Shown: one piece after another, positions 8,030 to 21,089 of the stretch
How positions within the stretch are numbered: position 1 is the stretch's first letter
Layout of the letters: every line of letters starts with the position of its first letter
From: Candidatus Heimdallarchaeota archaeon
Lineage (GTDB): Archaea; Asgardarchaeota; Heimdallarchaeia; JABLTI01
Direction of reading: 5' to 3'
Length of the DNA stretch: 23,749 nucleotides
Assembly: GCA_019058275.1 (NCBI GenBank)
Contig: JAHLVW010000003.1
Span: forward strand, 1-23,749
Notes under the pieces: model-generated
Told to the model about the DNA's origin: nothing
Database searches by the model: none
The model's input: only the letters and a program-made list of their open reading frames with translations
Made by a program: the position numbers and the translations under genes

Positions 8030-9259
8030 TTAAACATCAAAGGTTTGAGGGATTCTATTTTTTAAAGAAATAGGTGAAATCTTGTTAATCTTTAGAGCAG
8101 TACAATTGTGAAACTCAGCAAATAGTTTCAAACCCTTATGAAATCGATCAAAAAATGTATCATTAATTAGCTTTTCATCGAGATAAAGAGCCTTTATTTC
8201 CAGCAAACAATCTTTTCTATGAGCTTTAATATCAGCTCGTCCTATCAGTATATTAGTATCTAATATGGGTAAAACGCAGTAACCATAAATTCTTTGATTC
8301 TCAGGTGTATATGCTTCTAATTTGTAATCAAATTTCCAAATTTATGATGGATATTTGCGTTCTCGTATAATTTTATCTAATGGAGAAAGGAATTTCAAAG
8401 GTTGTTTTGTTAGATCATCACTTTCATTAACTAACCTATTAGCATCCTTACTCAATACAAAATGAATAGAATCTATACCTTCTACTTGAACGCTTTCTAA
8501 TATTCCTTCTTTTACACAATCATCTAGAAATTGAATTATTTTTTCTCTTTTATTATTCCATAGAAATTTTACATGAGATGTTCCCAAATAAGATTGCATT
8601 TCTTCAAAATTGCCTAGTCCTATAGAGGAAAAGACAGTATTAACTATGAAATAAGGAAGTTCATCTTTTGCCATCGGTTCTTTATCTATACTTGGTGGTA
8701 GAATTCTTTCAGTTAAATCATAATATTTCTGAAATCCTTTTCTAAAGTCAATCATCAATTTACCTATTCTGAACAGGTATTCCATGGCACGTTTTTCACC
8801 TTTCCAATCCCACCACCTTTGTGATTCTTTGCCTTCTTCCCTTTTGAAATCAGCACTGCAAGTAGTTCCATTCTTTTTGATATATTTGTAAATGTCATTT
8901 ATCAGTTGTTTATTTTCAACAACCCATTTATTCCACCAATTCGAGATATTATCTTCTAAATAGTCCATTTTCCAAGCATAAAATGAATAGTCTTCAATCG
9001 GAATCAAACAGATTGCATGAGACCAATATTCAAACAGTTTTCTATCTTTAACGTATTTCCAGACTTCTTTTTCCTGATAATTAGGTAAGCGATTGAAGAG
9101 AGTTAAATCGTGAGACCTTGCAACTACTGAAATAGTATCTATTTGAATATTGTGAATTCTTTTAGCAACATCAATTATGGATTTTGATGGAGATTTCGTT
9201 CGTAATCCCTGTTTTTCCAGAATAAAATTTTGTGCTTTTTCTAAAGGAACTTCAATCAT
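8030..9259 (-). pseudogene. ycaQ: YcaQ/AlkZ-family (HTH_42) interstrand-crosslink DNA glycosylase with an in-frame TAA at 8342-8344
   Basis: Catalytic IQIDTISVVARSH (QxD), FEYWSHAIC, WWDWK, FQKYYDLTER. After the TAA the same frame continues IWKFDYKLEAYTPENQRIYGYCVLPIL..IGRADIKAHRK to a TAA at 8030-8032, about 409 codons in total. Confidence 0.85.
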
Positions 9260-15302: not shown

Positions 15303-15466
15303 ATTCCTCAATCTTATAATTTTACCCGTAAATTCCATAACCAGTTGTGTATATTATAGTCTGTTAACTATTAAAGATATTGTAAATACTCAAGTTTTTT
15401 TGCATAAAATGGTATTACTAGAGTTTTGATAAGATATAAGTAGAAGAAGCAAACAACAGAATAGTA

Positions 15467-15556
15467 TCTCAGGTACGTGAGAAACCTCATACAAACAACA
15501 GATCCAGAAGTTTGACAAACAAGTTCTGGAAACTTGTCGTACTAGAAACTTCGGAT
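15467..15556 (+). promoter_or_regulatory. Structured leader / nested inverted repeats upstream of the uvrA-like operon
   Basis: ATCCaGAAGTTT (15502-15513) pairs with AAACTTCGGAT (15546-15556). Inner stem ACAAGTT/AACTTGT (15519-15537). Small TCTCA/TGAGA hairpin at 15467-15482. Strong AGGAGGT SD downstream. Confidence 0.45.
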
Positions 15557-15580
15557 TAAAATGATGATAGGAGGTATAGT

Positions 15581-16822
15581 ATGAGAGACACTATTTCAGT
15601 GAAAGGTGCAAGAACAAATAATCTAAAGAATATAGATGTGGAAATTCCTCGTGATAAACTCACGGTTATAACCGGAGTATCAGGATCAGGGAAGACTTCG
15701 TTGGCTTTTGATGTCATTTTTGGAGAAGCACAGCGAAGGTTTTTCGAATCAATGTCAGCAACTTCTAGAACTATGTTACCAATGTAAGAACGAGCAGATG
15801 TAGATTCGATATTATGCTTATCACCAGTTGTTGCTATTCAGGAAAGAACTGGAACACAGAACCCACGATCATCAGTGGGAACTATGACTGATATAGCCAC
15901 ATACATGAGAATCTTATTCTCAGTACTAGGACAAGCACATTGTCCTTATTGCAATGAATCTATTGTAACTCGTAATGCAAATCAGATAGTTGATCATCTG
16001 ATGACATTACCTGAAGGAACAAGTATAGAAATCATTGCTCCAGTGAATAAATTCTATGGAGAAGACTATCCCTATTTGTTTGATGACATCCGACAGAAAG
16101 GGTATAAACGTATTAAGATTGATGGAAAACAACACAGTCTTAATGATGAGATTGAGTTAGATGAAGATAAAGACTATCGAATAGAGGTCTTAGTGGATAG
16201 ATTTGTTATTAAAAGAGAACTCTACAAACAGCTAACCCTATCTATAGAGAATGCTAGAATGGTTGGAATGAATTTTATCCGCTTTGAATTCTCAGATGAG
16301 AGCATCTCTGATGATGTTGAGAAGAAATTCTACAAGAACTTTGGTTGTAAAAGACATCATGTAATCATGCATACATTACTACCTGGAGGATTCTCTCCTA
16401 ACATACCAGAACATGCCTGCGTTAATTGTTTAGGTGTTGGCACACTACTGAAAGCAGAACCATACTTGATTATAATTTATCCTAAAAAAAGTATGAAGAA
16501 AGGAGCAACAAAATGGTACCCAAAGTATTGGTTGTATAGTATTGCTAAACATCTAGAGTTTGATGTAGAAAACACTCCATGGCAAGATATGCCTGAAGAT
16601 ATCCAACAACTACTGAAGACTATAAACAAGCTTGTTGATGCTGGTAATACAGTTATAGTTATTGAACATCACTTAGATGTCATAAAGTCAGCTGATTGGG
16701 TTATTGCCCTAGGTCCTGAAGGTGGAACCGAAGGTGAGTATGTCATAGCAGAAGGAACTGTTTAAGACATCGTTAAGTGTAAGGATTCCTATACAGGACA
16801 GTTCTTGCAAAAAGTACTTTAG
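15581..16822 (+). pseudogene. uvrA: UvrA-like ABC ATPase pseudogene (two in-frame TAA stops and a large internal deletion)
   Basis: [12 protein letters not shown], Walker [18 protein letters not shown], Zn knuckles CPYC / CKRH / CVNCLGVG, and C-terminal [38 protein letters not shown] at 15785-15787 and 16763-16765, all in one frame. About 413 codons versus roughly 940 for a typical UvrA. Confidence 0.88.
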
Positions 16823-16842
16823 GATGAACTGGAGGAAAAACA

Positions 16843-17678
16843 ATGTTTTGTACAGTTAATGATTGTGAGATATACTATGAAGTAGTTGGTGAAGGTAAAC
16901 CAATACTAATGTTGCATGGTTTCCCACTCGATCATCAGATGATGAAAGGATGTATGGAGCCTATCTTCAAACATCGTCATGGTTGGAAACGAATATACTT
17001 TGATTTACCTGGTATGGGGAAATCGAAAGTAGCTGATCATGTAAAGTGTACAGATGATATAGTAGATATTGTATTGGGTTTCATCAAAGAAGTAATTGGT
17101 GATGAGAATTTTGTTATAGCTGGTGAATCTTATGGAGGAGTTATGGCTAGAGCAATCATTTATCATCAACCTAAAAAAGTTGATGGGTTGTTCATCTTCT
17201 GTCCAGCAACTAAATTTGGCGAAGAAACTATAGATTTACCAACCAGAAATGTTCTGAGGATTGATGAAGACTTTGTTAATACTCTGGAAAAAGATGAAAA
17301 GGAGTTTTTCCAATCTTTCGCAGTTGTTCAAAACAAGTATACATGGCATCGTATAAAAAATGAGTGTTTTCAGGTTTCACTATAAGAGACAAAGAATTCA
17401 TTGCAAGGTACTCTAGTGAAGAATCTCGTAGACTGACATATGATATTGACAATCTAAAGAAACCATTTGATAAACCTTCTTTATTACTAACCGGTAGACA
17501 AGATCATTGGACTGGATATAAAGGAGCTTGGGACTTCTATGAAAATTATCCTCGAGGATCATATGTAGTTTTAGACAAAGCAGGTCATGGTTTGCAATAC
17601 GAACAAGTTTTACTATTCAATGTGTTAGCTGATGAATGGCTTGATAGAGTTGAAGAAGAACTGGAGGAGATGAACTAA
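16843..17678 (+). pseudogene. Alpha/beta-fold hydrolase split by a 1-nt frameshift near 17364-17370
   Basis: LHGF, DLPGMG and nucleophile GESYGG in the first ORF. Asp (GRQD) and His (AGHGL) in the overlapping second ORF. Confidence 0.82.
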
Positions 17679-19548
17679 ATGGAAGATCCAAAAGTTCGAG
17701 AAAAATTCGATACCACCCTAGAACTGTTTGTTGAAAGAGCAAAACAAGACACTCAAGTTCTAGGAATCATCCTTTTTGGCAGTCTTGCACATAACAGAGT
17801 CTATGAACGCTCGAATATCAATATCATGGTAGTAACTAAGGAAGCTCCGGCTACAAAAGAATCGTTGAAAATGGAATTCCCTTTGACATAGGTATCTACA
17901 ATATCAATGCCTTTAGAAGAAATATCTTTGGAAGAAGAAGAGTTGCTTATCATCAGAGCTTATCTCGTAGCAGATTATTGTTTAGTAGAGATAATAGTAT
18001 TGATGACATGTATAACAATATCAGCAAATCTATTAGCGGACAAGATCAAGAAATCAATCATATACTATATCATGGTGCAACTCATTATGACCTCAAAAAG
18101 GCTGAGAAATTTCTCTATATAAAAGATAAACCAGAATACAGTATGTGGCTTGTCGTACATACACTCAGCGAAATGGGTTATCTTATGTGCTACATGAATG
18201 GAATATTCCCACCTCGAGAGGTTATACTTGAAGCCAAAAAACTCTATCTGAAATTTATGCTCCACTTTACGACAACTTGGTAAATAGCACTGCAACAAAG
18301 GAAATCTTAGAAAATACTATAAGAGAAACTTATAGATTTCTTGATGAGCATACACTAGATAACTTTAGACCAATATTAAACTACATAACAGAAAATGATG
18401 GAACTGCTACAGAAAAAGAACTGGAAATCTATACGAGAGCTAAAGGATTGTATTTCGTTGATTTAGAATACTTGCATAGAAGACGAATCATTCGAAGAAC
18501 TTTTGCTCCAGTTAAAATAACAAAGAAAGGACGTATAGAGTATAACATGCCCCAATATCATTTTGATTGGGATTCCTTTGATTCAAAAGAGGTAATACCT
18601 TCACAAATAGGACCATCAAATGTTGATAGATCGATTATAGTTAAAGATTATCAAGCAGCTTTTGATTCATTATTTGAGAAAGTAAAACAAGATGAATATA
18701 TCCTATCACTTATGGTTTTTGGTAGCTTAGCGTACGATAAAGTATGGGAAAAATCAGATATTGGAGCCATATTAGCTACAAGTGATGAAAAATATAGAAG
18801 TCGTCATTCTTTGATAGAAATGGATGTATCAATTGATACTTTGGTTTATACTCGAGATGAGTATAGAAAGATACTTCAAAGAATAACTGATGGAAGTGTT
18901 ATACAATCACTTTTCTCAAAGAGTAAAGTAGTCTATACAAAAGATGAAACAATATATGACATATATGAAGACATTCAGAAAATGGGTTCTAGAGATTTAG
19001 AACACATACTTCTAGCAAATTATGTATATTGTAGAGATTTGTTAAATAAGGCTTTAAGAGCACTTAACGTCAACGATGATCCGGCATTTAGCTTTATACT
19101 TTCAGCAATAAGACGATTAGCAAATATAGAAGTTATATTAGACAAACAAATACCCATAAGAGAATCAATAATACAAGCACTTGAAATTAATCCAAAGTTC
19201 TTCAACACAATATTCATTGAAGCGGTTCGCAAGTCATCAAAAGACGAAAAAGCATTGAATGCACTAATCCAGAAAATAGAAGAGTATTTGGATGAAAGAC
19301 TAGAAAAGATAGTTCAACCTATCCTACGACTCATAGATAAATATCAAGAAGCAACATATTCACTCATCTGGAATTATCTCAATGAAATTAATATTCCAAT
19401 AGATTTGAGTGACTTTGTAAAGAAAGATCTTATTGATGAAATTGACACACCAATTCGTTTTGTTAGAAAAAGTTCTTCGAATATGAATCAACCAGCATAT
19501 ATTTTAGCAGATAGTACCTCAGATATGATGATGGGATTTGATGTTTAA
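17679..19548 (+). pseudogene. Tandem-duplicated Pol-beta superfamily nucleotidyltransferase (two NTase + helical + winged-helix-like units), two frameshifts
   Basis: ORFs 17679, 17978 and 18277 join via -1 shifts near 17845 and 18240 into about 623 aa. Unit 1 has FGSLAHNRVYERSNINI and unit 2 has FGSLAYDKVWEKSDIGAI. The units align along their whole length. Confidence 0.75.
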
Positions 19549-20072: not shown

Positions 20073-20579
20073 ATGTCTAGTGAGCCTTCAAGAAAGAGAT
20101 CATGGATATATGGATCTATAATTACAGTTTGTTTTATAGCAATAGCTATTTTGATAGGTTATTTTACCGATTCATGGGAAGGTGCTCTAACTTTATTTGT
20201 TTTAGCAGGCCTAGGATTGGTAATTACAATACTATATTCTACTCTATTTTATATCAAAAAACTTGAAATACCAAATATTAATTTTGAGTTAATTTCGATT
20301 TTGGATATTGATAAGGAAGAACAAAATACTGAGGATAAAAGAAATAACACTGATGAAAAAGTCTACTACTATGTTGAAAGGATAAGCAATCCACCAAAGG
20401 AAGAAAATTGCAGAATATCATTAAGGTCAATAGAAAAAGAGCGAGAAGCAATCCAATGTCTTTTTTGTAAATCATTTTTCATTGAAGATTATCTAAAGAG
20501 ATGGCTGTTAGAGGATGAAATCTGTCCTGTATGTAAAGCTGTCCTAATGAGTTCATTTGATGAAATTGAGAATACTTAA
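20073..20579 (+). CDS. Membrane-anchored (2 TM) protein with C-terminal degenerate RING finger, putative E3 ligase
   Basis: Two N-terminal TM helices. CRIS-x12-CLFC-x3-FIEDYLKRW-x6-CPVC. Confidence 0.75.
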   Translation: MSSEPSRKRSWIYGSIITVCFIAIAILIGYFTDSWEGALTLFVLAGLGLVITILYSTLFYIKKLEIPNINFELISILDIDKEEQNTEDKRNNTDEKVYYYVERISNPPKEENCRISLRSIEKEREAIQCLFCKSFFIEDYLKRWLLEDEICPVCKAVLMSSFDEIENT

Positions 20580-20603
20580 AAGCATATAAATCCAAATTCA
20601 ATT

Positions 20604-21089
20604 ATGCGTTTTAATAGATATTTTGAATTAATAACTTGGATAACTCTTATTGGTGGTATAGTCCTTGCAGGAGTTGGGTTATACAAATTCGGTTTTGCTG
20701 AAAATTCTGATTATGCAATTTTGATGTTGGTTATTGGATTAGTTATGCTAACAATAGGTATAGTTTTGTTTGTTATTAATGAAAGAAATCAAAGAAAAAA
20801 GAAATCTATAAAAGAGAAACCAACTAGACAACAACGATCTGTTAATTATTCTATAAGAACGCAACTAGATGATGAAAAACCAATGAAAAAAGGGAAGTTA
20901 ATTGCTTCCATTGTTGATTATCCAGTTGTAGGGGAAGTTTGTATGATATCAAAGCTTCCTATAGAGGATGATGACAATGTCTTGCAATGCCCATTTTGTA
21001 GTTCTTACTTCATAAAGAAATATCTTGAGGAATGGACTAAGAACAATAAAACTTGTCCAGTATGTAAGAGCATTATACTTGAAGAATAA
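20604..21089 (+). CDS. Membrane-anchored (2 TM) protein with C-terminal degenerate RING finger, paralog of the upstream gene
   Basis: Two TM helices and a basic linker. CMIS-x12-CPFC-x3-FIKKYLEEW-x6-CPVC. Confidence 0.75.
   Translation: MRFNRYFELITWITLIGGIVLAGVGLYKFGFAENSDYAILMLVIGLVMLTIGIVLFVINERNQRKKKSIKEKPTRQQRSVNYSIRTQLDDEKPMKKGKLIASIVDYPVVGEVCMISKLPIEDDDNVLQCPFCSSYFIKKYLEEWTKNNKTCPVCKSIILEE

Follow-up and report, generated by a model that had tools for sequence, protein, structure and literature searches.

The three tightly coupled genes at positions 15581-19548 of the window, the 23,749-nt stretch of an Asgard archaeal genome that was analysed (Candidatus Heimdallarchaeota archaeon, GCA_019058275.1, contig JAHLVW010000003.1), encode a UvrA-like ATPase, an alpha/beta hydrolase and a tandem-duplicated nucleotidyltransferase (NTase), and are very probably a recently inactivated, dead copy of a conserved, self-contained module that joins a UvrA paralog to a kanamycin-NTase-like (KNTase-like) NTase with a winged helix. 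In bacteria, nucleotide excision repair (NER) classically begins with UvrA, and to our knowledge the class IIa drug-resistance proteins are the only characterised UvrA relatives that act outside NER. A separate, full-length UvrA clade nearly always paired with an NTase-like protein points to an unstudied coupling of DNA-distortion sensing to another downstream activity, and what this locus newly contributes is the fused pseudo-dimer form of the NTase partner. The features of the locus are as follows.

15440..15580, + strand: conserved upstream leader/promoter, with nested palindromes, near-invariant across 5 species of the genus
15581..16822, + strand: UvrA-paralog pseudogene (ORF pieces 15581-15787 and 15875-16765; UvrA_inter E 5.5e-25, Pfam)
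16843..17678, + strand: alpha/beta-hydrolase pseudogene (ORF pieces 16843-17385 and 17364-17678; Abhydrolase_1 E 9e-14)
17679..18615, + strand: double NTase, N-terminal half (NTase, helical domain and winged helix), with motif SNIN in place of SDID
18616..19548, + strand: double NTase, C-terminal half, frame open, motif SDIG

As the preliminary description proposed, the genes are closely spaced, with a 20-nt gap between the true uvrA stop (16820-16822) and the next ATG (16843), and a 0-nt gap between the TAA at 17676-78 and the ATG at 17679. AGGAGGT lies at 15569-15575, ahead of the first ATG at 15581, and the 11-mer GAACTGGAGGA is found at 16826-16836 and again at 17658-17668, with start codons 7-10 nt downstream of each copy. 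By a rough estimate about two repeated 11-mers are expected per 4 kb, close to chance for this repeat; the position and GGAGG core of the 11-mer, rather than its repetition, are what matter. Upstream, the leader carries nested palindromes, GTATCTCAGATAC and ACAAGTT-N5-AACTTGT, within 15463-15538, and a CCTC able to pair with the Shine-Dalgarno GGAGG at 15570-15574, which a predicted hairpin would hide (RNAalifold and RNAfold, z = -2.67). This leader is almost unchanged among the 5 species of the genus, despite a coding dS of 0.26-0.87, and has no match in Rfam. Neither uvrB nor uvrC is adjacent, as had also been stated; they lie on contigs C11 and C69, respectively.

Comparison with the intact G004 ortholog located the lesions and bore out the earlier impression that all three genes are decaying together, through two nonsense codons, an in-frame deletion of ~522 codons and three frameshifts. 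The uvrA gene has TAA codons at 15785-87 and 16763-65, and aa 346-867 are missing from it in frame, the junction (16595-16615) falling at a short EDIQ repeat. Against the 942-aa ortholog, what is left shows 95% identity over aa 1-345 and 91% over aa 868-942; it still has the N-terminal Walker A, Zn module 1 and the UvrB-binding-like domain, together with a portion of the insertion domain and the final 75 residues. The hydrolase, compared with the 278-aa gene of G004, lacks 1 nt near 17365, while the NTase, which survives as Pol-beta NTase ORF pieces at 17679-17891, 17978-18283 and 18277-19548 (ORF and Pfam), has a 4-nt deletion near 17841 and a 1-nt deletion near 18247, both frameshifts in its N half, together with a 6-nt in-frame deletion near 19090 in its C half. 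These are not assembly errors of the homopolymer type. An independent assembly encodes, on a 930-kb contig, a 98%-identical protein (P0007) that begins at the same secondary start, 18277.

Intact operons occupy the same syntenic site in four sister species, with three genes in G004 and G005, and with the hydrolase shrunk to a 65-codon remnant beside intact UvrA and NTase genes in G003 and G007. The intact orthologs are under strong purifying selection, with dN/dS values of 0.04-0.06 for UvrA and 0.06-0.09 for the NTase. The suggestion that the three genes behave as one unit is supported by G004 and G005, where all three lie intact in synteny, but the unit that is conserved more widely consists of two genes, the UvrA paralog and the NTase. 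The hydrolase, which has a GESYG nucleophile elbow, is accessory, confined to genus g1 (stand-alone in G009) and absent at 10 Thorarchaeota loci and 74 bacterial loci; it is a genus-specific insertion between the UvrA and NTase genes. The module comes in a single layout, NTase then UvrA, in bacteria and Asgard archaea, and in a double layout, UvrA then a tandem-fused NTase pseudo-dimer, in Asgard archaea of the Heimdall and Thor groups; the window has the double layout with the hydrolase inserted. In this genus the single form is preceded by an ArsR and GyrI-like regulator, and an intact single-NTase copy lies behind such a regulator on contig C22 of the same genome. That copy may make the one in the window dispensable, and the locus exemplifies loss of a module while a second copy persists in the same genome.

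Linkage of the two genes recurs widely, as the preliminary description would predict. A UvrA paralog stands beside an NTase homolog at all 36 Asgard loci and at 74 of 80 bacterial loci, three of the six exceptions falling at contig ends (110/116 overall). The pair occurs in at least seven bacterial phyla, its bearers including Paenibacillus, Cohnella, Alicyclobacillus, Symbiobacteriaceae and Chloroflexota as well as Armatimonadota, Abditibacteriaceae, Latescibacterota, Gemmatimonadota and Acidobacteriota. No third gene is conserved among the ORFs that flank 70 bacterial loci most closely on either side, nor at the Thorarchaeota and f3 loci, and the families listed for the nearest ORFs of the 70 bacterial and the Asgard loci include no biosynthesis-type domains. 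A tblastn search with the NTase matched none of 72,556 plasmid and 50,697 phage records, and the operon DNA matched only generic uvrA pieces in plasmids. Fusions of NTase to UvrA were not found among the longer proteins searched, which is weak evidence; natural fusions (P0076, P0084, P0094) do join the NTase module to an AraC HTH or to ECF sigma factors. In the former, the NTase occupies the position of the ligand-binding domain in some AraC-family regulators, such as Rob. Together with the ArsR/GyrI-like regulator and with occasional glyoxalase/bleomycin-resistance, AlkZ-like, GNAT and DinB neighbours, these fusions hint at a small-molecule theme. The literature searched (UvrA paralogs with nucleotidyltransferase, YgxA, UvrA classes) does not describe the pair, in agreement with the earlier view that this is not a characterised system.

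The UvrA of the module is also not the ordinary NER protein of the lineage; had it been, the original proposal would have been undone. In the tree, UvrAs linked to an NTase group in a single clade (SH-aLRT 100, stem length 0.4) that lies apart from the uvrB-linked UvrAs, and the latter occur separately in the same genomes, as uvrB-uvrA-uvrA clusters (the Thorarchaeota have such a separate cluster) or as fused UvrA-UvrA. Each of three complete Paenibacillus genomes has exactly two UvrA_inter genes, one scoring 148 bits, presumably the canonical UvrA, versus 72-83 bits for the NTase-linked one. The intact orthologs resemble class I UvrA (9gxk, 3zqj, 2r6f, 3pih) in their two ABC modules, zinc modules, and UvrB-binding-type and insertion domains, in scoring 1096 bits on TIGR00630 (cut-off 730) and in matching 9gxk at E 1e-282. 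This full domain set is present in the intact orthologs but not in the window copy, with aa 346-867 lost and two stops. They differ from class I in falling below the NF001503 equivalog cut-off (1132 vs 1147), in never lying beside uvrB and nearly always beside the NTase, in a change of one zinc ligand from Cys to His, and in loss of an Arg conserved only in canonical UvrA (G004 position 179). The ATPase domains of the clade are conserved. Its UvrB-binding-like domain, which was said to be kept in the window UvrA and is indeed recognisable there (UvrA_inter E 5.5e-25), scores 69-90 bits in the clade versus 84-148 in uvrB-linked or best-scoring UvrAs, has only 5% of its conserved sites in common with canonical UvrA and possesses clade-specific residues of its own. 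UvrA changes specific to the double form are not enriched in this domain, giving no support for co-adaptation there.

Class IIa UvrAs (Ecm16, DrrC), which lack both the UvrB-binding domain and zinc finger 1, are additional UvrA paralogs whose ATPase activity protects DNA from bound drugs without UvrB/UvrC, and Ecm16 gives resistance without UvrB, UvrC or UvrD (PMC9328131). Since the zinc module 1 CxxC and UvrA_inter are both present in the NTase-linked clade, it falls outside class IIa. Furthermore, class IIa genes have no NTase partner and sit within biosynthetic clusters, whereas this clade has an NTase partner, and the sequence match to class IIa (7sh1; D. radiodurans UvrA2, 2vf7) is weaker, with E 1.7e-139 for 7sh1 vs 1e-282 for class I. 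The likeness we propose is a functional analogy, in which an extra UvrA paralog without UvrBC may guard DNA.

In line with its first description as a double nucleotidyltransferase with a winged-helix-like tail, the 626-aa product of the third gene in its intact form is, in high-confidence predicted structures, a fused pseudo-dimer of a KNTase-like module that carries a winged-helix tail (pLDDT 88.5 and 90.9; pTM 0.89 for the double). Foldseek placed the models closest to 3c18 (E 1e-12) and ANT(4') (E 1e-8), with TM-scores of 0.65-0.70 normalised to the matched chain (0.62-0.69 across the ANT(4') comparisons); 3c18, an uncharacterised YgxA-like protein, is also a distant relative in sequence (E 1.4e-9). 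ANT(4') (1kny, 6un8) likewise has a Pol-beta NTase domain and a helical substrate-binding domain and works as a dimer, but identity in structural alignments is 11-15%, the present family adds a C-terminal winged helix, and only this family is tied to a UvrA gene. A minimal Pol-beta NTase core is also shared with MNT/HEPN toxin-antitoxin NTases and Hailong HalB, although the matches (MntA E 3e-9, HalB E 8e-6) lie far below cut-offs, the HEPN motif Rx4-6H is replaced by a conserved R-x4-Q, and this family has neither a toxin/effector partner nor a defence context.

The catalytic DxD is intact in all 80 bacterial single NTases. Among 25 doubles it is dead in the N half of 24, and the C-half site is present in 21. 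P0043, on a 6.4-Mb contig, is a 624-aa double NTase with the opposite half dead. In the window and in each of the genus's four intact orthologs, loss of the second Asp leaves the C half with DxG (SDIG), and the hG[GS]...DxD/E metal site of ANT(4') is replaced by SNIN and SDIG. With the N half dead and the C-half motif degenerate, a simple drug-inactivating role is doubtful in this genus; and because selection on the NTase is strong although both DxD motifs have degenerated, catalysis alone does not account for its retention. A partner selected after both motifs degenerated implies that binding or scaffolding matters, and not catalysis only.

Our best guess for the function is a NER-independent response to DNA-binding toxins. 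Working without UvrB or UvrC, the UvrA paralog would draw on its ATPase to locate DNA that a bound or adducted small molecule has distorted, and would clear that molecule, as Ecm16 and DrrC do, with the NTase dimer or fused pseudo-dimer as its ligand-binding partner. In most lineages the NTase would probably also nucleotidylate the ligand; where both motifs have degenerated, as in this genus, it could only bind or scaffold, and the hydrolase would provide an extra detoxifying step. We place this mechanism, drawn by analogy, just short of an even chance, and hold the explanation as a whole, an inactivated module together with toxin clearing, to be evenly balanced. Of the two roles first put forward, the context weakly supports genotoxin resistance and offers nothing for signalling or defence. 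Several observations speak against a toxin response: the clade keeps the UvrB-binding domain that is missing from the known drug-resistance UvrAs of class IIa, a small-molecule NTase has no obvious need of a winged helix, the neighbours are mostly unrelated housekeeping genes, the families listed for the nearest ORFs give no sign of biosynthetic clusters, regulators are rare beside the bacterial pairs (3 AraC in 70 nearest upstream ORFs), and one genus retains its NTase with neither DxD motif intact. A broader formulation, a possibility of which we are doubtful, is a widespread two-protein DNA-surveillance machine in which UvrB has been replaced, beside a class-I-like UvrA paralog, by a dimeric KNTase-like partner that marks, binds or inactivates DNA distorters. 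If true, damage recognition of the UvrA type would feed a second output, independent of NER, in bacteria and the archaeal relatives of eukaryotes, with a fused pseudo-dimer bearing one active site as the partner in Asgard archaea.

The retained UvrB-binding-like fold, with its own conserved surface and lost Arg (G004 position 179), would fit a scheme in which the UvrA paralog finds a lesion and recruits the NTase through this altered domain, the NTase then nucleotidylating DNA, at a blocked end or lesion, or a DNA-bound protein, and opening a pathway of repair or tolerance other than NER. The winged-helix tail would fit a DNA or protein contact, one active and one dead half would suit an asymmetric macromolecular substrate, and there are weaker fold matches to the DNA-synthesising NTase HalB. 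We nonetheless consider such repair unlikely, given that the top fold matches are small-molecule O-nucleotidyltransferases, that the surroundings hold no conserved nuclease, ligase or helicase, and that the pair is kept in a genus with both motifs degenerate. The same winged helix, along with the AraC HTH and ECF sigma fusions, the conserved palindromes upstream of the operon and the apparent dispensability of catalysis in one genus, could instead make the NTase merely a ligand-sensing transcription regulator of the UvrA-paralog gene, the two proteins forming no working complex. This seems distinctly improbable: DxD is retained in 80/80 bacterial singles, the NTase gene is transcribed together with its partner, stop and start codons overlapping, and not divergently, the genus's single form already has a separate ArsR/GyrI regulator, and a 626-aa pseudo-dimer duplication would be unusual in a repressor.

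Very little probability attaches to an anti-phage, other defence or signalling system in which UvrA senses foreign or damaged DNA and the NTase makes a signal. NTases are common in defence systems, HalB and MntA match weakly, and the PADLOC mad3/mad8 (MADS) profiles match the C-terminal half of UvrA (E 5e-78). The mad3 match is, however, confined to generic UvrA ABC regions, and PADLOC gave only generic ABC (mad3/mad8, AriA) and short PDC-S09 NTase-core matches, with the partner genes not found; no effector gene is conserved among the housekeeping neighbours, the NTase is missing from the plasmid and phage records, and CD-NTase fold matches are negligible (E about 0.06). That the locus is the usual NER uvrA beside unrelated genes, or pseudogenes clustered by chance, has next to no likelihood. 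The intact orthologs do exceed the TIGR00630 cut-off, but they miss that of NF001503, and both versions are contradicted by the linkage across Asgard archaea and bacteria (110 of 116 loci) and by a separate UvrA clade in genomes that carry uvrB-linked UvrAs elsewhere.

Our analysis indicates that a gene for a UvrA paralog paired with a Pol-beta-fold nucleotidyltransferase (NTase) gene is a widespread, apparently uncharacterised module, of which the window carries a copy with an added hydrolase gene. The three-gene operon noticed at 15581-19548 in the preliminary description was correctly observed, and it is real but dead in the source genome, a 4.1-Mb MAG that belongs, judging from the source names of homologs, to the Heimdallarchaeota group of Asgard archaea (window G+C about 31%). 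The ribosome-site signals claimed for it can all be read in the sequence, namely AGGAGGT at 15569-15575 and the repeated GAACTGGAGGA at 16826-16836 and 17658-17668, and the genes are spaced by 20 nt and 0 nt. Lesions were mapped by alignment to the intact ortholog:

15581-19548, + strand: UvrA-like ATPase, then alpha/beta hydrolase, then Pol-beta-fold NTase, all in pieces
15785 and 16763, + strand: TAA stop codons in uvrA
uvrA residues 346-867, + strand: in-frame deletion, flanked by two short EDIQ-coding repeats
near 17365, + strand: 1-nt deletion in the hydrolase gene
near 17841, near 18247 and near 19090, + strand: 4-nt deletion, 1-nt deletion and 6-nt in-frame deletion, respectively, in the NTase gene

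The substitutions to stops, the 1.5-kb deletion and the 4-nt deletion cannot be put down to assembly noise. A protein of 98% identity, encoded in a different assembly, starts at the same secondary start in the NTase gene. Compared with intact relatives, the window copy has a slightly raised dN/dS of 0.05-0.20, and because this is far below 1, inactivation must have been recent. Over 15581-16615, the 5' portion of the broken uvrA shows a dS of 0.115 to the sister species G004, versus 0.4-1.7 for the remaining operon, a mosaic suggestive of recombination between members of the genus.

At the same syntenic site, sister species G004 and G005 carry the intact operon (942/943, 278 and 626 aa), while in G003 and G007 the UvrA and NTase genes are intact and the hydrolase has shrunk to a 65-codon remnant. 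Comparison of the intact copies with one another gives dN/dS values of 0.04-0.06 for UvrA, 0.06-0.09 for the NTase and 0.15 for the hydrolase. The hydrolase is confined to the window's genus, with a stand-alone gene elsewhere in the G009 genome, and is therefore an accessory insertion outside the core. Thus the unit proposed initially stands as an operon, with the hydrolase as a local add-on to a core of UvrA paralog and NTase.

This core recurs widely. Every one of the 36 Asgard loci that gave a strong NTase match has a UvrA paralog directly next to it. In bacteria, scanning a single genome per species with degenerate patterns returned 80 loci, spread over at least seven phyla, of which 74 have the pair. 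In nearly all of these 74, a full-length UvrA begins at most ~150 nt downstream of the NTase, the widest gap being ~1.4 kb (L070); contig ends account for three of the six negative loci. In the single form the NTase precedes UvrA, with stop and start overlapping; the double form, UvrA followed by a double NTase, occurs in the Heimdall-group genus and Thorarchaeota. The source genome also encodes a second, intact, single-form paralogous operon:

contig C22 (L020:4897-9598): ArsR-HTH/GyrI-like regulator, single NTase of 315 aa with an intact SDID motif, and UvrA paralog of 963 aa, with overlapping stops/starts

No conserved third gene was found upstream or downstream of the pair, either among the nearest ORFs of 70 bacterial loci or at the Asgard loci.

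The UvrA partner is distinct from the repair protein. No element of the class I architecture is missing from the intact orthologs, which score above the TIGR00630 cut-off and just below that of NF001503. A tree of 40 sequences groups the NTase-linked UvrAs in a single clade (SH-aLRT 100), apart from uvrB-linked and best-scoring UvrAs; it includes one Anaerolineae paralog whose genome has the NTase elsewhere. Asgard sequences make up a subclade of their own (SH-aLRT 96), which is part of a polytomy with Bacillota lineages; a long stem leads to the double-form UvrA nested inside this subclade. The ATPase regions are conserved across the clade; the UvrB-binding-like domain shares 5% of its conserved sites with canonical UvrA and has clade-specific residues of its own. 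Ordinary repair genes persist in the same genomes. Thorarchaeota (L151, L152) have a uvrB gene with a tandem pair of uvrA genes behind it, and the source genome has a fused 1973-aa UvrA-UvrA on C52 (L154:1859-7780), uvrB on C11 and uvrC on C69, this duplicated UvrA presumably being the ordinary NER UvrA of these Asgard archaea. A similar fusion (1888 aa) is present in a Latescibacterota genome (L158). In each of three complete Paenibacillus genomes there are exactly two UvrAs, one high-scoring and presumably canonical, the other NTase-linked. Since the linkage is recurrent and the clade separate, neither a lack of association nor identity with the ordinary NER gene, the two outcomes that would have spoken against the original proposal, applies.

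The 626-aa NTase is a tandem duplication of a ~313-aa module comprising an NTase domain, a helical domain and a winged-helix tail (three helices plus hairpin). Structure models are confident for both the single (pLDDT 88.5) and double forms (pLDDT 90.9, pTM 0.89), the latter pTM implying that the two halves would sit in a fixed arrangement. Among solved structures, the best hits are to 3c18, an uncharacterised protein, and to ANT(4'), a kanamycin nucleotidyltransferase. The S-D-x-D catalytic motif is intact in all 80 bacterial single-module NTases. In the doubles, the N half reads SNIN in 20 of 25, with another Asp-lacking variant in 4 more; the C half has DxD in 21 of 25 and SDIG in all members of the window's genus, intact copies included. 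In P0043, a distant double NTase, the dead half is the opposite one. Judged by its motifs, the double form is a fused pseudo-dimer that would need at most one active site, and catalysis has probably been lost in the window's genus, though selection on the NTase is still strong. Natural fusions among metagenomic proteins (P0076, P0084 and P0094) join the module either to regions 2 and 4 of ECF sigma factors, in two separate clusters, or to an AraC-type HTH. In the AraC fusion, the module takes the position that a ligand-binding domain has in some regulators of the AraC family, such as Rob.

The literature searched contained no account of a pairing between a UvrA paralog and an NTase. We infer that the pair may mediate a small-molecule or genotoxin response, in line with the resemblance of its fold to drug-modifying NTases, the GyrI-like regulator adjoining the single form in the window's genus, the fusions to AraC HTH and ECF sigma factors, and the glyoxalase, AlkZ-like, GNAT and DinB genes scattered among its neighbours. 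A precedent is the UvrA-like ATPase Ecm16, which shields DNA from echinomycin without UvrB, UvrC or UvrD (PMC9328131). However, class IIa UvrA-like proteins lack the UvrB-binding domain (PMC9328131), whereas NTase-linked UvrAs retain a UvrB-binding-like domain; this retention, the winged helix of the NTase, the lack of biosynthetic or consistent regulatory context at the loci and the degenerate catalytic motifs in the window's genus all weigh against a small-molecule or genotoxin response. It is conceivable, if unlikely, that the NTase stands in for UvrB, acting at the lesion on DNA or protein, and decidedly doubtful that NTase and winged helix are merely a sensor-regulator of the operon. A defence system is very improbable, as its profile matches are generic only, the neighbours are housekeeping genes and plasmid or phage matches are absent.

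A stretch of about 130 nt upstream of the operon (15440-15580) is near-invariant in five species, against a coding dS of 0.26-0.87. It holds two palindromes and a predicted hairpin in which CCTC pairs with the Shine-Dalgarno GGAGG (z = -2.67); nothing in Rfam matches it, and it may serve as an operator, or as a leader sequestering the ribosome site. At 8342-9259 (- strand), 6 kb upstream of the operon, is a gene for an AlkZ-like DNA glycosylase, whose family is linked to the repair of interstrand crosslinks and of genotoxin damage; in 2 of 70 bacterial loci, too, the closest ORF on the downstream side of the UvrA paralog is AlkZ-like. At 20073-21089, a tandem gene pair shows weak matches to RING fingers, and its place beside the operon is conserved in sister species.
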